64,000 nt of DNA from Candidatus Latescibacterota bacterium (lineage in GTDB: Bacteria; Latescibacterota; UBA2968; UBA8231), in assembly GCA_965215195.1 (NCBI GenBank), contig CBDCDC010000002.1, forward strand, positions 1,120,001-1,184,000, read 5' to 3'. A program made the position numbers and the translations under genes. How positions within the stretch are numbered: position 1 is the first letter of the stretch; each line of letters starts with the position of its first letter. The notes beneath the pieces were generated by a model. The model was not told where the DNA came from. It searched no databases and worked only from the letters and a program-made list of their open reading frames with translations. This document shows, one piece after another, positions 1 through 11,586 of this stretch.

Positions 1-522
1 TTCATAATCACCGCAAAGCCCTATCCATTCCTAATCAGGTAAACTGCAAGATCCCATACACCGACCTGTCGTAGAGATTCCTGCCACCGCCGCCAGACCA
101 TACTATAGTGGATTTTATTCCTTCCTCGGGGGTGTCGCAGTCTTCGATCTCGATGTCGAAAAGGATCTCTTGGCCCTCATCCGGTTCTAGGTCTAGTTCC
201 ACAAAGGGAAGTTTAGCGTACAGCCTGTACCCTCCTCTGCCCAACTCACACGTCACCTTTGACTCGGGGATGAATTCACAATCTCCAGTCTTCCTGTTTC
301 GCTCCATGAATGCGGGATTAGGACCGCGCTCTGCGGTTGGGAACATAATGCAGACCTTGGGGTCTTCACGTACGTCGAATGAGGCAAAGTACACCCGCAC
401 ACCGTCCCGTGACAGGTGGTCCCTCAACCTGTCGCCTTCCACGCATAGTACGACGTCGTCCTTTACTTCTATATCAAGGTGGAGATAATTTTCATCCCAA
501 GCCACCCGGCAACAGGCACTTA

Positions 523-2904: not shown

Positions 2905-3420
2905 CTAGTCCACGACGTCAAACTTCACTAAGCCTTCTTGTGTATCTCGAATAGTATCTATGGTGGTTTCTCCACACTCTACCCAAGCGTGTGGCCTCAA
3001 GCTCAACCCTTCAACACCAATAACCATCTTGGCAGAGAAGCCTCTCCTTTTTAACATCGAGCAGATTGCAAACGATCTCGGCAAACACAAAGCACGCCAT
3101 GGAAGGATCAAGCACGCTATTTGAACGGCATCTCTACACGATTGAAACACGTCGGTCTGATCAAAATCGGACTGGGGCACTCGAGATAGTCGGGTCACCT
3201 TGAGACTGTGACTATACATAGAGTCGAATTCCAACACACGACTCATGAGCCCTACGTACAACAGAGTCAGGAAAGCCTCTGCTGCTACCAAGTGCAACGG
3301 TAATTTCCTAAGATGCCGTCTTAAAACCTGTTGTGGCCTAGCTAAGCCTTGGAAGGAAATATTCATTAGGCAACCTTTGAATTTCACCAAACAGTCCGCT
3401 CCAGTTAGTGCATATTCCAC
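2905..3420 (-). CDS. Lasso peptide leader peptidase B2 (transglutaminase-like)
   Basis: CLPRS...L.RRG....VIGV....HAWVE motif with catalytic Cys/His; lies in an operon with cyclase and RRE. Confidence 0.92.
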   Translation of the reverse strand: MEYALTGADCLVKFKGCLMNISFQGLARPQQVLRRHLRKLPLHLVAAEAFLTLLYVGLMSRVLEFDSMYSHSLKVTRLSRVPQSDFDQTDVFQSCRDAVQIACLILPWRALCLPRSFAICSMLKRRGFSAKMVIGVEGLSLRPHAWVECGETTIDTIRDTQEGLVKFDVVD

Positions 3421-5262
3421 TTACTTCTCAACGACTTGGGCTCCAGCGTAACGGGCCGACTGGACATTGAAGAACTCAGCATAGATTCCACTCGCGCCAA
3501 TTAGATCTTCGTGTTTTCCTTGCTCAACTATTCTTCCGTTGTCTAGAACGATGATACGCGTAGCAACCTGCACAGTGCTCAGTCTGTGTGAAACTATGAG
3601 GCACGTTCGATCTTTCGTCACATCCTCCATCAGTCTTAGTAGTCTCTCCTCTGCCTCTACATCCATTGCTGCACTGGGCTCATCCATAACCAGCAAACCC
3701 GCTTGGCTCTTGAATAGAGCCCTAGCAAGGGCAATATGCTGCCACTGCCCTACAGACAAATCCACTCCGCCAATTTCCCGCCCTACTACTTGCTCATTCC
3801 CACCACTTAAATCTTTCGAGATTGCATCGACACCCGATTTGGCAAGTACTTTCTGCAAGAGCTCGGAATCTCCTTTTCGGTCTATATCACCAAGTTCAAC
3901 ATTTTCTCTAATTGTCCCGTCGTACCTAGCGAAGTCCTGAAACATGGCAGAGACAATTCCACGCCGCATTGCGGCATCGTCAAAAGTCTTCCCCTCTATA
4001 GATAACAGCACATCTCCTCGACTATGCGGCAACAAGCCACAGATAATTTTCACTAGAGTCGTCTTGCCAGCACCGTTTCTTCCGACCAAGGCTATCCGTT
4101 CACCTTTTTTTATTTCTAAATCAACCATCTGCAAGGCATCTTTATTTGTGCCAGGGTATCGATAGCACACATTCCTTAGTTGTAGGAGCGTATTTACTGA
4201 ACTCCCTCTGCTTGTTGTTGGAGTGAAAATAGGTTCCTTGTCCTCACTCAGTTCCATGAAATCGAAAAAATCACTAACAAAGAAGGAACTCCTGAACACT
4301 TGGACCACCGCATGGCCGAGCCCTCGTATTGCCTCTCTAAGCTGAACGGTTCCAGCAAGTCCAAGAGCAACTGAACTCAGATTTATCACGCCTTGAACGG
4401 CAAGCCAGACTACGTACATGTAAACAGCCGCTGCCGCTACCATGGCGGGTAAATCCCAGAACAGAACGCTCCTATTCTTGCTCAGAAATAGATGTCTCCG
4501 TCTATCATAGCATTCCTGCCAAAGAGACTCATACTTATCTAGCCAATGATCTTTATAGCCAAACACCCGTAGTTCCTTCGCGTAATCACGACTACTAAGC
4601 ACCTTTGAGTAGTAATTTAACTTACGACGGTCGGAGCTCTGATGTTTGAACAGATGATGTCCATCTACTATGTAGAGCATTTGACAAATCAGAAATGGCA
4701 CGGAAACCAGAATAAGTAGCGGGCTTATCCAAATACTAATTGTCGCGACTACAAGAGCCGTCGATATGACTCTAACTAACATTGAAATAGACGAAAAGAA
4801 AAGTATCGACGTATACTCAGGCCATTCCTGTGCACGTTGTGAGGCCTCTATCTTGTTGTAAAATCGTGGATCCTCATATTGATGATATGGGAGCCGACTC
4901 GCCTTCTCCGCTACTCGTTTTCTGGCAATATGCGTGGCTCGCTCCCCTAATATCCCTGTCATTGGTCTCCAGAGCACTTCTGCCATTGAAGCAACTCCCC
5001 ATATCAACACTTGTAGACATACTAAGGGGCCCACGCGTTCCAGATCCCATCCACTAGTTACGAGAGCCGCGGCCTCGTCAATTATCAGCTTCATCACCCA
5101 AAGAGACACCGCACCGGCTGCACCATCATAGACGATTAGTGCCAATGCTAACACCAAGTATGAGCTTCCTGCCTCTCGATACATCTTCAAAACGAGAGGA
5201 AGGCGCAAGACGAGGTTCTTTATACCGCTGTAAAATTCTAAGGTACGGACTTGCCAAGACAT
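3421..5262 (-). CDS. ABC exporter, fused TMD-ATPase (lasso D-type)
   Basis: N-terminal TM helices; GRNGAGKT Walker A, LSVGQWQ signature, VMDEP Walker B, SHR H-loop. Confidence 0.93.
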   Translation of the reverse strand: MSWQVRTLEFYSGIKNLVLRLPLVLKMYREAGSSYLVLALALIVYDGAAGAVSLWVMKLIIDEAAALVTSGWDLERVGPLVCLQVLIWGVASMAEVLWRPMTGILGERATHIARKRVAEKASRLPYHQYEDPRFYNKIEASQRAQEWPEYTSILFFSSISMLVRVISTALVVATISIWISPLLILVSVPFLICQMLYIVDGHHLFKHQSSDRRKLNYYSKVLSSRDYAKELRVFGYKDHWLDKYESLWQECYDRRRHLFLSKNRSVLFWDLPAMVAAAAVYMYVVWLAVQGVINLSSVALGLAGTVQLREAIRGLGHAVVQVFRSSFFVSDFFDFMELSEDKEPIFTPTTSRGSSVNTLLQLRNVCYRYPGTNKDALQMVDLEIKKGERIALVGRNGAGKTTLVKIICGLLPHSRGDVLLSIEGKTFDDAAMRRGIVSAMFQDFARYDGTIRENVELGDIDRKGDSELLQKVLAKSGVDAISKDLSGGNEQVVGREIGGVDLSVGQWQHIALARALFKSQAGLLVMDEPSAAMDVEAEERLLRLMEDVTKDRTCLIVSHRLSTVQVATRIIVLDNGRIVEQGKHEDLIGASGIYAEFFNVQSARYAGAQVVEK

Positions 5263-5310
5263 AGGTAAAAAGTCCTTCTTAGCTCGATTGCATCCCCCAA
5301 GGTATTTTTA

Positions 5311-5394
5311 TGAGGCAGTATTGTTTCAGCGAGGCGGTCTGAGGCGGTCTGGACTTTCTAGATCACCACGGTTTAGAGTTGTACCGCTACCTCA
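5311..5394 (-). terminator. Stem-loop region downstream of the lasso precursor gene
   Basis: TGAGGCAG/TGAGGCGGT arms complementary to ACCGCTACCTCA (5383-5394); contains the 10-bp tandem repeat GAGGCGGTCT x2 (5331-5350). Confidence 0.4.
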
Positions 5395-5418
5395 CGCGAA
5401 AGGCACGTTGAGAATAGC

Positions 5419-5556
5419 CTAGGCCTCCTTAAAGAATTCGTCCTTTCCGCCAACCGTCTCACTCCCGGCCGATGTTCCGCCCTTGGTGAGTTCGTCAACT
5501 TTTCCATACTCGATCACTCGAGGTTTTTCGTACTTTAGGGTTTCGTTAGTTTTCAT
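5419..5556 (-). CDS. Lasso peptide precursor (45 aa; absent from the ORF track)
   Basis: Manual translation MKTNETLKYEKPRVIEYGKVDELTK-GGTSAGSETVGGKDEFFKEA: YxxPxV..G leader motif, Thr at -2, core Gly1 with Glu8 acceptor. Confidence 0.93.
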   Translation of the reverse strand: MKTNETLKYEKPRVIEYGKVDELTKGGTSAGSETVGGKDEFFKEA

Positions 5557-5642
5557 AAGCTATATCTGCTTTCTGTGGCTTACTCTAACGAAAGGATCCA
5601 GATTCGCCTCAGACCTCCTGTAACTGCAACTGATTGTCCTCA

Positions 5643-7460
5643 TCAAAATGAAAATAAGTCCGTATTATCCGATAACCATTTGTCCATGCTTAAATAGCAC
5701 AGGGCCGTTCGACACGATTTTTCGCACCCGTAAAATGCACGCTCCAGACCGGCTCTATAAATCTGCCGGTCAGCGATACCTAGCCTTACAAGTATTGAGT
5801 TCATCCAAAGATGTTCTACTCTGATCCACTCCTTGCGAAAAGCAAGGGACAAGGACTCAAAATTGCCACCTTTGCTTCTCCTGTTTAGAACCCGTTCCGG
5901 AAGAACATCTCGTAGAGCTAGCCTTTGTAACCCGCGCGTATCTAGTCCGTTTACTCGCATACCTGGCGGCAGAGATAAACAGCGTCTCACTAGAAAACTA
6001 TCGAAGAATGGATGCCGGGATACCACCCCGAGGTCGCTTGTTTCACCTGTGAAGTTACGTATCTCTCTAAACAAGGCATCTGCAATAATCGCTGACTCAA
6101 GATATGGCATTTCTGAAACCATCGACCACTGTGTGCGAAGCAAGCGTCTGGCATGTTGATCATCCTGCATATCAGTAAGCCAATTTACAGAACTAAGTGT
6201 CAGCATGCCCGGACGAAATGGCTTTATTAGATACTTCCAGACTCCCCGAATCAAGGGTTCATTTTTGCGCTCACACCACATCCTTAAGTGCGATGCTGTT
6301 TGCTTCACGTGGCCATTTCGTATTAAGTCACGCAGGCCCCATGGTCGAGCACAGAACAATTGGTCCCCTCCTAATCCGGTCAACAGAAGATCAACACCGT
6401 TATCTTGGCATATTGATCGGACCTTCTCGGTTGCTGCTTCCTGAAGAGTGCTGATGCTTGGTTCTGGTAGACGAAGAGATTCGTCCAGTGGTTCCTTTAA
6501 ATGCCATGCGTCACCTACATCAATTTCAAAGCACTCAACCCCTACTTTCCTCACTATTTCCCTAGCATAATCCAATTCATTGCAACCTACGACATCATTT
6601 CGATAAGTCGTCAATGCACATAAGCCATGTCTTCCACTTCCTTTGCTTTGCAAGGCTGCAAGCGCAAGAATTGCCGATGAGTCTAGCCCCCCACTCAACG
6701 AAACACATGGTCGCTCCGCTACAACGGTTCGGATTCTAACAGCTCGACCTAAGTCTGAGAGCATTTTCCTTGATAGATCTTTGGGATTAGTCGGCAATAT
6801 ACAGTCTGCTTCTTTCCATACGCTAATTGTCTTTGTCCTCACTGACCGGGACACCACTTCAAGGGCTGTGCCAGGTACTAAGGCTTTTATCCCTTCAAAT
6901 GGAGTAAGTTGATACGAACTTGGTGCTTGTTTCGGGAGCACTGTGCTCAAGTAGGCAAGGACGTACGTATAGTTTAGATTCAATTCTATTCCTGGAAGAA
7001 ACGTCATTGCACATATATCTGTGGAAATGAATAGATAGCCATTTAATTCTGTATAGTAGATCGGGCGGACACCGCGGAAATCTATACTAACCCATACACG
7101 TTCATCACGAGGAGCCACAACCATCAGACAAAACTCACCGACAAGGGTGCTAAATACTAGCTCTGGACACCAACTACGAGGCACGTGAATCTCGTCCGCT
7201 GAAACTTGGCTGCACTCCTTTTCCGATTCGGCAACTCTGAACGCAGGATCAGAAAGAACAACAAACGGCTCCGTTCTTGCTGGAGTCTTTGTCGATTTCG
7301 ACACCGAATATGCTAACCACGCGTCGTTTCCCAATCCACTTGGCACAATAGCAACATCACCACCTTGACTTCTCACCCATCCCTGTGCTGAATCCGAAAT
7401 ACGATTCGCAGACAGAGAAATACATATACAAAGCGTATTGCTAGTTCTAGGCCTTCTCAT
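5643..7460 (-). CDS. Lasso peptide cyclase (asparagine synthetase-like, C protein)
   Basis: SLSGGLDSS PP-loop, LLTGLGGDQLF, RHPFFD; no N-terminal catalytic Cys; flanked by RRE and precursor. Confidence 0.92.
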   Translation of the reverse strand: MRRPRTSNTLCICISLSANRISDSAQGWVRSQGGDVAIVPSGLGNDAWLAYSVSKSTKTPARTEPFVVLSDPAFRVAESEKECSQVSADEIHVPRSWCPELVFSTLVGEFCLMVVAPRDERVWVSIDFRGVRPIYYTELNGYLFISTDICAMTFLPGIELNLNYTYVLAYLSTVLPKQAPSSYQLTPFEGIKALVPGTALEVVSRSVRTKTISVWKEADCILPTNPKDLSRKMLSDLGRAVRIRTVVAERPCVSLSGGLDSSAILALAALQSKGSGRHGLCALTTYRNDVVGCNELDYAREIVRKVGVECFEIDVGDAWHLKEPLDESLRLPEPSISTLQEAATEKVRSICQDNGVDLLLTGLGGDQLFCARPWGLRDLIRNGHVKQTASHLRMWCERKNEPLIRGVWKYLIKPFRPGMLTLSSVNWLTDMQDDQHARRLLRTQWSMVSEMPYLESAIIADALFREIRNFTGETSDLGVVSRHPFFDSFLVRRCLSLPPGMRVNGLDTRGLQRLALRDVLPERVLNRRSKGGNFESLSLAFRKEWIRVEHLWMNSILVRLGIADRQIYRAGLERAFYGCEKSCRTALCYLSMDKWLSDNTDLFSF

Positions 7461-7713
7461 TGACTATTAATCCTAAATTAACGAGTTCTTGCAAAAACTC
7501 CTGTGCATCCTGTCTTACCAGAGACCGTGGTTGCTCATAGATATCGGCCACTTGGTCGAGTGCATCCCACCTCTTGTTTTTTGCTACAATGTTCTTCCAA
7601 ATCTTTGCTGCTACTCCTTCTAGGCCAAAGTATTTTCCGGAATTGCAATCCAGAATGACCAAACCCTCTTCATTTTCTGCTACGTAGACGCCCTCAGCTA
7701 TCCTATAGCTCAT
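7447..7713 (-). CDS. PqqD-family RiPP recognition element (lasso B1)
   Basis: 88 aa with VILD...GKYFGLEGVAAKIW and D...FLQEL...GLI. Confidence 0.92.
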   Translation of the reverse strand: MSYRIAEGVYVAENEEGLVILDCNSGKYFGLEGVAAKIWKNIVAKNKRWDALDQVADIYEQPRSLVRQDAQEFLQELVNLGLIVNEKA

Positions 7714-7715
7714 GA

Positions 7716-8771
7716 CTAGTTCCCACCTTTCTTAGAGAGTTCTCTAGCTGGTTTAGGCCTAAAGTACTTTAACCAACCGCGTTCAAACATAGCTTTGCAT
7801 ACCACCAATTTCAAAGCAGATGGAACCTCCCCTGGAAGATTCTTAATTAAAGTAGGAGTCTTACTTCGCACCATGTGCTCAACAAGTCTAATTGAGTCCC
7901 TTGGCAGACGAAGGAGAGTATTAGCTGATGTAACTAAGCCCTCTCCTTTCACGACTAACTGTTCACCACAGTTATCGTCAAATGATAATCTTATACCACT
8001 CTCTATTACTATGCAGCCCTCCAATGACATAAAAGAGGCCGTTTCAATATCGAGATCAAATCTATTCTTCGGGCAATTATGCCATGTTGTCCGACCTTTA
8101 GCAATAAGCCTTATCGCTTCGATCATTTTATTAACCGACTCAATATCATTTCTAACAAGATCCATCAATTTGTCACAAATACAAACGTTCTCCTCGCCGA
8201 TCGAAGACGCAAGAATCGCCAAGGGAGTAGATAAGATTGATGCTCCTTCACGATGAGATAATCTCATCTGTCTTACCAAGACTTCTAACGTCAGTGCCTT
8301 GAATCCTACAGTTAAATGTACGGATGGTTCTCTTCCCGCTCTGGCTTGATGCTTAGCACCTTTGGGAATATATAATGCGTCTCCCACTCCAAGCTCCTTT
8401 TCAATCACTGCTGAAATATGAGCATCTATAGGCTCGACTACCCAGTTTTTTGATCCCTCGCACTGAATTGCAAACACATCATAATTATCTTTATGGGCAT
8501 GTAAAGTTTGTTTTCCGTTGGGGGTCATATAACAATTAATGTTTGCATTCCCCAGAAGATGATTTTCAAGTGAACTTCGCATCACAGACAATACTGGAAC
8601 CAAGCGATCCAATCCTCGAATGACTACGGACTTTCCTCTTTGAAATGCATCTAGAGCTGCCCTAGCGTTGCAATTCGCATCAACTTCTAGTCGTCTTTCA
8701 CTAAGAACCTCTACATGGTTGTTGGGATCTGAACCTATGGCCCAGATCAACTTTGTAATCTCCTCATACAT
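7716..8771 (-). CDS. JmjC/cupin Fe(II)/2-oxoglutarate oxygenase (RoxA/NO66-like), possibly 5'-truncated
   Basis: NCYMTP...HAHKD.YDVFAIQCEGSKNW...GDALYIPKG..H.A...SVHLTVG (HxD...H triad). Start moved to ATG 8771 because the longer ORF overlaps the upstream GC-rich gene. Confidence 0.85.
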   Translation of the reverse strand: MYEEITKLIWAIGSDPNNHVEVLSERRLEVDANCNARAALDAFQRGKSVVIRGLDRLVPVLSVMRSSLENHLLGNANINCYMTPNGKQTLHAHKDNYDVFAIQCEGSKNWVVEPIDAHISAVIEKELGVGDALYIPKGAKHQARAGREPSVHLTVGFKALTLEVLVRQMRLSHREGASILSTPLAILASSIGEENVCICDKLMDLVRNDIESVNKMIEAIRLIAKGRTTWHNCPKNRFDLDIETASFMSLEGCIVIESGIRLSFDDNCGEQLVVKGEGLVTSANTLLRLPRDSIRLVEHMVRSKTPTLIKNLPGEVPSALKLVVCKAMFERGWLKYFRPKPARELSKKGGN

Positions 8772-8799
8772 GAACTTTAACGCGTCTGGCCCTTGCTGG

Positions 8800-10143
8800 T
8801 CAGGAAACCATCCGCATCGGCATGAGCACGGCAGCGTGGTGGTCCGCCCCCGCCTCAAAGTGAAGGGGTGCCTTACCATGGTCGAGATATATCCGTATCT
8901 CCTCCGCCGCGTCTTTCAGAGCCTCCACAATCGCTTTGAGGAAGTCGTGATTGAGGCCGGCGCGGAACGATCCGCCATCCTCGATATTTGTCACATCGGC
9001 AGGGCAACTCACGGAGTACTCCCAGTCCGGTAGCTCGTCGCCGAGCAGGTCGTCCGCGTCTTCTCGGGTCCGACTGAACCCTTGATCCCGCGTCGTGCGC
9101 AGTGCCAGTTTCCCCTCTGCGCTCGACACTCGCATCTCTACGCTAGGCACGTACTCCCAGCCACTTTTCACCAGTTCGTGGCGGTCTCTGAGGAACGGCT
9201 CGATCTCCTCCACGCAGGCCATCAGGTGCTCGCTGTGCACGACCACCAAGATCGGACCGGGGGTGCCGACGGCCTCTTGGTACTTGAGGTACGGTCCGGG
9301 AATTGCAGGGAACGTCACCCTGCGGCCGTCCGAGGTCTGCAACGTGGCAGATTCCTCTTCGAGAATCAGCATTGCCGAGTCCGTCTCCGGGATCATTTCA
9401 GGGTGCAGCGAATCGAGAATCACCGGGACCGGCAGCGACGCCAGACCCTTACTCAACCAGTTGAGCAGCCGCGAGCCATCGGTTGCGACAATCCTGCCGC
9501 CGGCGTCGAGACAGACGCAGTGCATAATGGGCCGCTTGGGATCGTCGCTTGTGAAGCGAGCTACGCGGCGCAGTCCGGCCAGATCGTCCAGGCCGAGTTC
9601 GAATGTCTGGGAAGTGCTGGATTCCGCCATCGCCACGATCTCCTTTTGCAGGCGTTTCCGGGCCTTTTGCAGACGGCTCTTTACCACTCCGGTTTGGAGG
9701 TGCAGCAAGTTTGCGGTCTGCTGATATGAATAGCCCTTGAGGTAGTGGTGGACGATCACGTCGCGGTGGGGGTCACTCAACCGTCCTATCGCCTTCCGCA
9801 CGAGTGCCCTGATCTCTTGCTTCTCCTGCTCGGGCGGTGCCGCGAGGTCGAGCTGATCCAGAAGATTGAGTTGCGTGAGGCGGTGCCGCTGCCACATGCG
9901 CGCTTTGTTGTCCGCAATCGAACACAGCCAAGCACCGAACCGCTCGGGAGAGCGCAGCCTTGCTAGCTGCTGGTACGCGGCCATGAACGCCTCCTGCAGG
10001 ATGTCCTCTGCCGCCTCTTGCGAGCCCAGCCTGCGGGTGAGTCGCGCCAGTAGCCACGGCGAATGTTCCTCAACGAGCAGACCAAACGCCGTAGCGTCGC
10101 CAGCGGCCGCCTTCTGCACACAATTTTCCCCATTCCGTTCCAT
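8800..10143 (-). CDS. ECF sigma-70 factor fused to DNA polymerase III beta-clamp-like domains
   Basis: N-terminus has AEDILQEAF, FGAWL and YSY...A..L....VKSRL.KARKRL (sigma regions 2 and 4). C-terminus has FTSDD.KRP.M, IVATDGSRL, GPYLKY, GLNHDFL and PL...VLMPMR, which match DnaN domains II-III. Confidence 0.85.
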   Translation of the reverse strand: MERNGENCVQKAAAGDATAFGLLVEEHSPWLLARLTRRLGSQEAAEDILQEAFMAAYQQLARLRSPERFGAWLCSIADNKARMWQRHRLTQLNLLDQLDLAAPPEQEKQEIRALVRKAIGRLSDPHRDVIVHHYLKGYSYQQTANLLHLQTGVVKSRLQKARKRLQKEIVAMAESSTSQTFELGLDDLAGLRRVARFTSDDPKRPIMHCVCLDAGGRIVATDGSRLLNWLSKGLASLPVPVILDSLHPEMIPETDSAMLILEEESATLQTSDGRRVTFPAIPGPYLKYQEAVGTPGPILVVVHSEHLMACVEEIEPFLRDRHELVKSGWEYVPSVEMRVSSAEGKLALRTTRDQGFSRTREDADDLLGDELPDWEYSVSCPADVTNIEDGGSFRAGLNHDFLKAIVEALKDAAEEIRIYLDHGKAPLHFEAGADHHAAVLMPMRMVS

Positions 10144-10207
10144 GTCACCCTTATACTTATAGTTGCTTCGAGGCGACAAAGGTATCCCCAGCGGGACAAA
10201 ATTCATC

Positions 10208-11494
10208 CTACTCCCGCACGAACTGCGGCCGGCCGCAGCCGTCGTTGACCACGTAGCTGCGCGCTGGAATCGCCGCTTGGTCGGGAATGACTAAATCGAG
10301 CGGCGAATCATTCTCAATGACCGTGCCAGCCCCCACGCGCACCCCGGCCCCCAATTTAATCGCTCCAGGCCGCACGGCCCCCGCCCTAATGGTGCCGATA
10401 GATACTGACACGCCGATCCGGCAATCCGGGCCAATCGCGACGATGCCGTTGATTTCGGTGTTGGCCCCAATCGCCGTGCGGTCGCCCACCTGCACCGGGC
10501 CGAAAAGCCCGGCATCCGTGCCGATAAACACGTAGTCGCCAATGGCCGGATGGCGTTGCTGCACTTTGCCGCTGAGGCCGCCCAAAGTACACGGATAAAT
10601 GTGGCATCCGCTGCCGATGATACCCGTCTGTCCGGTGGTTATGCCGCGATGGGGATGGTCGAGGAAGTTGGCGTCGCCAATTTGCGTTTCGGGATGGATA
10701 TCCGCCTGATAGTAGCGGCCCCCCAACTCGGCAATGGCCCGCGGCAGCAAGGGCACTGGCCGCCGCATCAGCCCGGATTCCTCCTCCACCGAGCCGGAGC
10801 GCGTTAGGGCGTGGGCAATGTCGTGATAGAACAGCACCCGCCACCCCGGATAGGTGCTCATCACAAGCTGCATCTGGTAGTCGAAAATGAAGTCGCACTC
10901 CAGCGCGGCGAGGAAGCGGCGATAGTGGTCAAAGTCGCGGCGGCGAATGGTCTCGTCCAAAGCGGCCCGGAAGTCAATCGCGAGCAGTTGCTCCTGAGTC
11001 AGCCCACAATTGTCGAGCAAATAGGCGTCCCAAACGGCCGGATCCCTAAGCGCGGCAAAGCGATTCCAGCGGGCGCGCACCTTGTAAGCGGGCAACTCCC
11101 ACAGCAAACAGAAGGTGTTCATCAGGGCCTTCTCTTCAGTGCCTTCGCGCTCGCCGGCTGCCGAAAGCGACTGGGCGATCATCGCGTAGAGCTGATCGGC
11201 AATCTCGCCAATGGCCTCGTCGAGCGACTGCTTTTGCTGCCCCGGCCCCAAGGCATTGTGCGATCCAGGGGCGACGCATTCGAGCAAGTTGCCCAAAACC
11301 GTTTCCAGCAGGTCGCGATTGACAAACCCGCGCCCCGAGCGCTCCGAGAGAATGTCCCGGTCAACCGCGTCGATGCGGAGCGCGGCGACCTCCTCTGCGG
11401 TGTAGATCGGCACCAGCCGCTCTAACAGCCGCTCTAGCAACGCCCACTTGCGGCGTTGATACGAAGTGTCGAAAAGCGTGGAATTGCTCATCAT
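10208..11494 (-). CDS. Serine O-acetyltransferase-like left-handed beta-helix protein with long N-terminal extension
   Basis: DIHP..QIG...FLDH..G, TLGG...RHP.IGD.V.IG and hexapeptide repeats. Confidence 0.75.
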   Translation of the reverse strand: MMSNSTLFDTSYQRRKWALLERLLERLVPIYTAEEVAALRIDAVDRDILSERSGRGFVNRDLLETVLGNLLECVAPGSHNALGPGQQKQSLDEAIGEIADQLYAMIAQSLSAAGEREGTEEKALMNTFCLLWELPAYKVRARWNRFAALRDPAVWDAYLLDNCGLTQEQLLAIDFRAALDETIRRRDFDHYRRFLAALECDFIFDYQMQLVMSTYPGWRVLFYHDIAHALTRSGSVEEESGLMRRPVPLLPRAIAELGGRYYQADIHPETQIGDANFLDHPHRGITTGQTGIIGSGCHIYPCTLGGLSGKVQQRHPAIGDYVFIGTDAGLFGPVQVGDRTAIGANTEINGIVAIGPDCRIGVSVSIGTIRAGAVRPGAIKLGAGVRVGAGTVIENDSPLDLVIPDQAAIPARSYVVNDGCGRPQFVRE

Positions 11495-11586
11495 TTGCTC
11501 CCCATTTTGCCTCCGCATAACTTTTAAGGAAACTTACGGAACGCCCGCCGGGTTGCAACCCGGCTTCACTCTTGCGGGGAAAAACC

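Follow-up and report, generated by a model that had tools for sequence, protein, structure and literature searches.

A sigma factor of the ECF type with a C-terminal extension homologous to sliding-clamp domains II–III in Candidatus Latescibacterota

In the genome of a Candidatus Latescibacterota bacterium (assembly GCA_965215195.1), a stretch of 64,000 nucleotides (nt; contig CBDCDC010000002.1, positions 1,120,001 to 1,184,000; the whole of it is hereafter called the window) carries on its minus strand one open frame that joins a sigma factor of the extracytoplasmic function (ECF) type to a homologue of domains II and III of the bacterial sliding clamp, the beta clamp DnaN. The clamp-like part follows directly on sigma4 and is read here as a C-terminal regulatory extension of a kind new for ECF sigma factors. 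We consider the chances somewhat better than even that this clamp-derived extension, with its pocket kept, controls the sigma factor in place of an anti-sigma factor.

Architecture of the fusion protein

The minus-strand open frame spans 8800..10206, stop codon included, and amounts to 468 amino acids (aa), the numbering used for residues throughout; an alternative in-frame ATG lies at 10206. The true coding sequence is most likely 8800-10143, because the orthologues, mostly 447 aa long, start at the equivalent of M22 (ATG at 10143) and because a block conserved among the upstream regions lies inside 10144-10206. The parts of the protein are as follows.

8800..10143, minus strand: coding sequence of the sigma–clamp fusion, 447 aa from M22, stop codon at 8800-8802
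9886..10077, minus strand: Sigma70_r2, residues 44-107 (Pfam PF04542, 53.3 bits against a cut-off of 24)
9841..9873, minus strand: start of the sigma2–sigma4 linker, residues 112-122, QLNLL followed by QLDLA (Q-L-x-hydrophobic)
9649..9804, minus strand: Sigma70_r4_2, residues 135-186 (Pfam PF08281, 41.7 bits against a cut-off of 25.7)
9265..9618, minus strand: half resembling clamp domain II, residues 197-314, with R225-P-I-M, VATDGSRL at 240-247 (9466-9489) and GPYLKY at 304-309
8803..9264, minus strand: half resembling clamp domain III, residues 315-468, with N419..F422-L423 and the C-terminal LMPMR at 461-465 (8812-8826)
9142..9195, minus strand: family-specific insert relative to DnaN (by alignment), residues 338-355, with R-H and G-W-x-Y-x-P motifs
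residues ~378-395, minus strand: second, acidic insert relative to DnaN (by alignment)

In addition to the two Pfam domains, the sigma half matches the NCBIfam model TIGR02937 (sigma70-ECF) with 89.9 bits against a cut-off of 42.9, and the best PDB sequence matches of the N-terminal 175 residues are solved ECF sigma factors. The r2 and r4 domains are separated by 27 residues only, no Pfam model of region 3 or region 1.1 matches at E ≤1, and the model of region 2 resembles ECF sigma2 domains with Z 12–14 in structure alignment. Judged from these matches, this N-terminal stretch of 175 residues makes up a standard ECF (group 4) sigma factor, consisting of sigma2 and sigma4. The specific NCBIfam models, among the 25 matches listed, all stay far below their cut-offs (PRK11922, for example, with 86.4 against 204). 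Alignments of the whole sigma half to solved complexes and holoenzymes give root-mean-square deviations (rmsd) of 13–18 Å, which permit no statement on an open or closed sigma2–sigma4 state. We note that two more ECF-like sigma factors of the same genome (G000:C2:2632755-2632961, plus strand, and C2:2261986-2262192, minus strand) sit in long frames of 466 and 613 aa and so have large C-terminal extensions, which are not clamp-like by the hidden Markov model (HMM) of the family.

The extension, 272 aa in length, is joined to sigma4 via about seven residues; in both structure models, the sigma4 helix runs to about residue 192, and residue 200 opens the first clamp strand. Routine domain models do not report it: the Pfam clamp models give no match to the C-terminal 272 aa of the window protein even at E ≤10, the NCBIfam scan is likewise blind to the clamp domain, and among 44 family members the Pfam clamp models yield 10 weak matches, only one of which (P0097, 28.0 bits) passes the cut-off of 27. 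An exhaustive phmmer search with the C-terminal part returns 77 proteins (E ≤1e-3), among which three are canonical three-domain DnaN proteins aligned over domains II–III, and none of the 77, bar one spurious repeat protein, exceeds 494 aa. With hhalign, a 48-sequence alignment of the family (A2) is matched to a small DnaN alignment at a probability of 99.7 % (E 1.3e-25), residues 198-467 being paired with residues 129-386 of the DnaN encoded in this genome. When the C-terminal part alone is made into a profile (A4, 18 sequences), it matches 41 distinct PDB sequences at E ≤1e-3, all of which are beta clamps (best 1.2e-12).

The first AlphaFold2 model has a predicted local distance difference test score (pLDDT) of 70.7, and its top Foldseek matches listed are all beta clamps (best E 5.9e-11); residues 196-466 align with residues 121-366 of E. 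coli beta (6fvl_D) at Z 20.0 and rmsd 2.8 Å over 232 aligned positions. The second model, built from a deeper alignment, reaches a pLDDT of 88.7 and a predicted template modelling score (pTM) of 0.74, and its best match is 7evp_B (Z 24.2, rmsd 2.3 Å, 233 aligned), where residues 197-467 are laid over clamp residues 131-377. Whole PCNA subunits align with the extension at Z 17–18.5 and rmsd of about 2.9 Å over about 215 positions. Domain I is missing: only residues 197-467 align to the clamp (from 121 or 131 to 366 or 377), and the sigma factor stands N-terminal to them. The extension is a homologue of beta-clamp (DnaN) domains II–III without domain I. In a protein-atlas feature search, clusters named clamp score below 0.9 only, a lead and no more; PADLOC finds no match, and viral contigs give generic ECF sigma matches only, with no viral counterpart of the fusion.

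The initial annotation of this DNA, drawn from the letters alone, had described a full sigma2/sigma4 ECF protein joined to clamp domains II–III with domain I absent, and Pfam, hhalign (99.7 %) and the structure alignment (Z 24.2) bear out that architecture. All five clamp motifs that it named are present and aligned with the matching DnaN motifs, and the coordinates that it gave for the gene, 8800-10143, coincide with the most likely coding sequence. The C-terminal region, whose clamp fold it had named as a point to check, does model as a clamp (pLDDT 88.7, best match 7evp_B), and of the stop codon or chimeric join between the halves that it had named as refuting there is no sign, the junction being spanned by independent contigs.

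Conservation of the fusion, its pocket and its linker

These independent contigs come from other studies. One of them (5843 nt, in X5) covers 8779-10400 with no insertion or deletion within the open reading frame (ORF), and a 708-nt piece in X1 (9334-10041) also crosses the junction near 9618 unbroken. In the metatranscriptome run X21, a 539-nt contig of a relative (~92 % alike) spans the junction as well (9390-9928), with possible DNA carry-over and with start and strand not shown by the contigs. Close homologues have r2, r4 and the C-terminal domain in 37 of 40 cases; the remaining three are two 276-aa pieces on contigs of at most 3.4 kb and one protein with r4 only. The species genomes of GTDB contain 28 orthologue loci (L001-L028), labelled Candidatus Latescibacterota and, in a few cases, Gemmatimonadota. 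A six-frame search of 168 Latescibacterota genomes gives a single match each in 67, all within four families of one class. Per family, the window's own genome excluded, the counts are 31/75 in family f1, to which the window belongs, 2/3 in f2, 18/22 in f3, 15/31 in f4 and 0/36 in the other ten families. Open frames of at least 422 aa contain 64 of the 67 matches, and three are shorter, one with an internal TAG. At larger distances (25–54 % identity), r2 and r4 precede the domain in 27 of the 49 representatives scanned.

The ratio of nonsynonymous to synonymous substitution rates (dN/dS), computed pairwise for 11 orthologues, is 0.11–0.31 in the sigma half and 0.20–0.39 in the clamp-like half, and on these ratios both halves are under purifying selection. 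The fusion is genuine and conserved, and is no assembly artefact.

Apparent stand-alone clamp-like proteins occur as 15 representatives of 261–324 aa. Ten such representatives were traced; eight of them sit on contigs of ~1–3.3 kb, and three of those eight cluster with fused members (433–466 aa). Judged by the short contigs and the clusters shared with fused members, the stand-alone forms are mostly rejected as gene fragments, and P0067 (284 aa, on a 46.5-kb contig) is the sole candidate for a true stand-alone form among those traced. A distant relative of the clamp-like domain, the metagenomic protein P0117 (348 aa), has a C-terminal SEC-C motif instead of the N-terminal sigma factor. Short copies in two complete-looking genomes (G131:C1:2563699-2563878 and G108:C1:5377352-5377585; also L018 and L025), in which just the first 60–80 residues of the clamp-like domain remain within ORFs of 268–278 aa, look truncated or decaying.

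In real clamps, the hydrophobic pocket of domains II and III binds clamp-binding motifs of the consensus QL[SD]LF. In alignment, the extension shares with DnaN the motifs R-P-x-hydrophobic at 225-228, VATDGxRL at 240-247, GPYxxY..V at 304-312 and N..Y/F-L at 419-423, and the family proteins end, as DnaN does, with LMPMR (461-465). These stretches match what we take to be the pocket residues of the E. coli clamp, T172-L177, P242-V247, N320, Y323 and M362-R365 in its presumed numbering. Among 27 diverse fused representatives, D243 and P463 are each conserved in 26, G244 and N419 in 24, M462 in 23, T242 in 22, R225 in 21, R246 and L247 in 20 and R465 in 15, and a tyrosine or phenylalanine stands at position 306 in all 27. 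By these alignments, the peptide-binding pocket motifs of the clamp have been kept family-wide.

Other parts of the extension depart from DnaN. The family-specific insert at 338-355 is aligned with a DnaN stretch that is presumably the dimer interface, and six residues, H343, W350, Y352, T371, G376 and W395, are invariant and family-specific in the C-terminal alignment (A4). The four would-be channel helices have mean charges of -0.11, -1.33, -1.59 and +0.11 in the 27 fused representatives, compared with 0 to +2 for the same helices in DnaN (four sequences, a small control), and in both models one of the helices is shrunk to a short turn with prolines. Separately from the fusion, the genome carries one copy of a canonical dnaN, with three domains and 387 aa, adjoining a recF-like gene, and the family HMM finds nothing clamp-like across the genome beyond the fusion and this dnaN. 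Because domain I is absent, an insert occupies the dimer site, two channel helices are on average acidic and a normal dnaN is kept, the extension is judged not to be a replicative clamp.

The linker between sigma2 and sigma4 carries a conserved motif of its own. Right after region 2.4 the family pattern is R-R-R-x-x-Q-L-x-hydrophobic; of 48 sequences, 47 contain Q112 and 47 have one of L, F, W, I and Y at position 115. Q-L-x-[LFW] is found at the same place in none of the genome's other 8 ECF-like sigma factors. QLDLF is a textbook clamp-binding motif, and the C-terminus of the genome's Pol IV-like protein reads QLDLF. The linker motif resembles such a clamp-binding motif, a likeness which suggests that the linker may dock in the pocket as a latch. 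The Pol IV-like gene itself (L083 1429-2331, in G000:C2; a 300-aa ORF) is the genome's only match to the IMS family (Pol IV/UmuC-like); its match to the Pfam model starts no earlier than profile position 73, and it is perhaps N-terminally shortened or has a miscalled start.

Docking of the sigma half (residues 22-196) on the extension (197-468) was modelled by complex prediction, with a score of 0.47 compared with 0.01 for the best of three controls. The docking mark is reached by 58 of 80 solved complexes and by 2 of 110 mismatched pairs, and scores of ≤0.60 comprise only 7 of those 80 complexes and both passing mismatches; a custom alignment was used in the run, so that these benchmark counts hold roughly. 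The runs agree in at least 80 % of contacts with a partner pLDDT of at least 83, and the docked chains are halves of one polypeptide, for which some contact is expected beforehand. The prediction lends weak support to the idea that the sigma half docks on the clamp-like half.

Upstream region and gene surroundings

Around the fusion gene, the following features are found on the minus strand.

10160..10187, minus strand: conserved upstream block, GGATAC, then 15 bases (17 in most orthologues), then GCAACTA(T)
10208-11518, minus strand: gene of a hexapeptide-repeat transferase, upstream of the sigma gene, present in 17 related loci
7716 to ~8771, minus strand: JmjC-type oxygenase, lasso-peptide cluster
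7447-7713, minus strand: PqqD-like B1 protein, lasso-peptide cluster
5643-7460, minus strand: asparagine-synthase-like cyclase, lasso-peptide cluster
5419-5556, minus strand: candidate precursor of 45 aa, with Thr at -2 and a Gly1...Glu8 core
3421-5262, minus strand: ABC exporter, lasso-peptide cluster
2905-3420, minus strand: transglutaminase-like B2 protease, lasso-peptide cluster

The last base of the upstream block lies 16 bases before the ATG at 10143 in the window and about 10 bases before it in the orthologues, which lack a 6-base duplication. Compared with the contigs of two other studies (X5 and X7), the window is longer by six bases at 10150, where a TATAAG-like unit lying between the block and the start codon is duplicated, and is without 11 bases near 10187-10190, beside the GGATAC box. 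GGATAC and GCAACTAT are each found exactly in 22 of the 23 upstream regions that were placed, including those of orthologues of only 56 % identity; 6 of 29 upstream regions could not be placed by the script. In distant lineages, GGATAC is exact in 14 of 20 loci. Since the geometry of the block is that of an ECF promoter, the block is a candidate ECF-type promoter and suggests autoregulation. Searched genome-wide, the block patterns return the gene's own site plus counts at the level of the controls (2 vs 1, 3 vs 1, 8 vs 6, 63 vs 49 and 6 vs 4).

The gap between the transferase and sigma genes is a hot spot of variable cargo in loci L002-L028, and the two genes are adjacent in the window. The cargo includes an MpaB-like oxygenase, an MMPL transporter with LolA-like and DUF1302 genes, an MFS transporter, and toxin–antitoxin pairs of the YoeB/YefM and ParE-like types. 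Distant lineages have quite different genes beside the fusion: one has sulfatases and PhyH dioxygenases, another an aminotransferase along with a transglutaminase-like protein. No anti-sigma Pfam domain is found among the neighbours in three lineage-specific contexts, in which several small or unannotated ORFs were not looked into, and no gene conserved beside the fusion across lineages was found. A 735-aa ORF upstream of the fusion in L065 is probably spurious, as it has no Pfam match and L064 has an ORF on the opposite strand there.

A complete lasso-peptide cluster (window 2905-8771, minus strand) begins right past the stop codon of the sigma gene. The island is low in guanine plus cytosine, at 41–49 % in the profiled part (6000-8999) against 61–65 % upstream, and is flanked by two transposase genes of the DDE type belonging to IS4/IS5 (617-1450 and 1704-2522, both plus strand). 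Homologues of the JmjC, PqqD and cyclase proteins occur in none of the 32 related loci compared. Contigs of runs X1 and X5 break or diverge at 8769-8808, which fits a recent, strain-variable insertion of the lasso island.

Possible modes of action and relation to known systems

Published ECF extension types comprise SnoaL-like (ECF41/56/294/295/205), TPR (ECF42), Cys-rich (ECF238/287/288), DUF1835 (ECF264) and transmembrane (ECF263) forms; groups with C-terminal extensions are usually without anti-sigma factors, and in ECF41 the extension makes contact with the linker (as given in the available parts of PMC7826278 and PMC8999054). The present protein agrees with such ECFs, so far as those parts describe them, in its minimal sigma2–sigma4 core, in an extension that exceeds 50 aa (here 272 aa) and adjoins sigma4 directly, in showing no anti-sigma gene nearby and in a conserved motif in the sigma2–sigma4 linker. 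It is unlike them in that the extension is a two-domain beta-clamp homologue, and a clamp-type extension is absent from the extension types in the available parts of PMC7826278 (part of its supplement included) and PMC8999054. The initial annotation knew of no ECF–clamp fusion, and none came to light: a full-text literature search on ECF or other sigma factors with the sliding clamp, DNA_pol3_beta or fused DnaN returned nothing relevant. A search on MerR–clamp fusions likewise returned nothing relevant, so that the occurrence of such fusions in Actinobacteria, as had been claimed there, is not verified, and a search on sigma factors of sponge-associated Latescibacterota returned nothing.

As regards DnaN, domains II and III are homologous and the pocket motifs are kept, whereas domain I is absent, an insert lies at the dimer-interface site, no Pfam clamp model matches at E ≤10 and the whole is fused to a sigma factor. 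The extension also has the two-domain topology of one subunit of PCNA or gp45, but its sequence is closest to bacterial DnaN and a trimeric ring is not likely. In phages, MuC of Mu binds the host clamp by clamp-binding motifs and needs it for the activation of late transcription, and gp33 and gp55 of T4 act with the gp45 clamp (available part of PMC12867686). As in those two systems, so far as that part describes them, a clamp fold is here physically linked to the promoter-recognition machinery; there, a free ring clamp on DNA is bound by short motifs of transcription factors, whereas here a clamp fragment stands covalently in the sigma factor, is cellular rather than viral, and probably forms no ring.

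We propose that the C-terminal extension of an ECF sigma factor was recruited from domains II–III of a replicative sliding clamp. The extension would sit against the sigma core and gate its engagement of RNA polymerase, replacing the missing anti-sigma factor, and a peptide of the clamp-binding type in the pocket would flip the switch. In a latch version, the Q-L-x-hydrophobic sequence of the linker would be a pseudo-clamp-binding motif held in the pocket, to be released when a clamp-targeting peptide or a protein bearing a true motif competes with it. A sigma factor gated in this way by a built-in pseudo-clamp would report directly as transcription, with no anti-sigma factor, how available the machinery of replication and repair is or whether clamp-targeting compounds are present; this fuller version is tentative and, taken as a whole, doubtful. 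The regulatory role, the latch and the ligand are what we infer here. The initial annotation had spoken of a one-component sensor coupling clamp-binding peptides, antibiotics or replication stress to transcription. The absence of an anti-sigma neighbour, the conserved pocket residues, the clamp-binding-like linker motif and the weak predicted docking speak for the one-component part of that idea; its links to a ligand, an antibiotic or replication stress are hypothetical.

Several observations weigh against a pocket-based switch. Within DnaN itself, conservation is likewise highest in the pocket motifs, so that their persistence in the family may partly reflect folding. Both models draw residues 87 to 118 or 121 as a single long helix, with pLDDT down to ~60, and the conserved hydrophobic spacing in the linker (113, 115/116, 119) suits an amphipathic helix equally to an extended clamp-binding peptide. 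Outside family f1, the fifth position of the motif is mostly acidic, and not F or L. The docking result is a weak pass with no contacts in its output and so cannot place the linker motif in the pocket, and with no recurrence of the upstream motif above control level, target genes cannot be named.

The kept pocket may instead serve as a tether, by binding the true motifs of replication and repair proteins (Pol III alpha, Pol IV, clamp-loader delta, MutL), so that the sigma factor or holoenzyme would be brought to such sites, or titrated by free motif proteins, and transcription would be coupled to replication status. The family-wide pocket motifs, the canonical QLDLF end of the organism's Pol IV-like protein and the phage precedents of clamp–transcription coupling, Mu MuC and T4 gp33/gp55 with gp45 (available part of PMC12867686), are in accordance with a tether; yet no replication or repair gene is conserved beside the fusion, and the linker motif and the weak sigma–extension docking fit an internal switch at least equally, and we regard the tether as unlikely. 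A related role would be that of a sensor or decoy for clamp-targeting natural products of the griselimycin or mycoplanecin type, in which the drug in the pocket frees the sigma factor and turns on a protective response. Clamps bound to griselimycin or mycoplanecin are indeed among the closest fold matches (6ptr_B, 8ciz_A, 8cix_A), and the pocket motifs are kept. However, a second, resistant dnaN is lacking from a genome with one dnaN, no efflux or resistance gene is conserved (the upstream MFS and MMPL genes occur in some loci only), and none of the 32 related loci compared has the adjacent lasso cluster, which leaves drug sensing with a low probability.

The layout of the extension, which equals a whole PCNA monomer (Z 17–18.5), also brings to mind a sigma factor that rides the DNA as its own clamp, the two-domain unit trimerising into a six-domain ring or joining DnaN, and T4 late transcription does place a sliding clamp beside sigma-like factors (available part of PMC12867686). 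Two of the four channel helices are nevertheless negative on average (-1.33 and -1.59, where four DnaN sequences give 0 to +2), one channel helix is short and proline-containing, a conserved 10-residue insert occupies the site aligned with the DnaN dimer interface, and no dedicated loader gene is conserved nearby; a ring is very unlikely. At the other extreme, the clamp fold might be an inert, structural appendage, a scaffold or spacer whose motifs are kept for folding, as the identity of the conserved motifs with the core conserved motifs of DnaN would have it. Such an appendage is quite improbable in view of the purifying selection on the extension in all 11 orthologue comparisons (dN/dS 0.20–0.39), its retention in 27 fused representatives at 25–54 % identity, the family-specific invariant residues added in domain III and the retention of the solvent-facing pocket residues R246, N419 and R465. 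We lean, if only slightly, towards the clamp-derived extension as a regulator that keeps its pocket and stands in for an anti-sigma factor.

Among the signalling families of bacteria, that of the ECF sigma factors is a major one; its members with fused extensions are understood least, and no clamp figures among the extension types published, so far as the available parts of those two papers go. The public annotation of a family member, the one name seen, reads only 'sigma-70 family RNA polymerase sigma factor' and hides the clamp domain. A clamp fragment that keeps its pocket would link the interaction code of the replisome to transcription initiation in a simple and testable manner, a link between replisome and transcription so far known only from phages T4 and Mu, via a free clamp. 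As the clamp pocket is a validated antibiotic target, the domain might in nature serve to sense molecules that bind the clamp.

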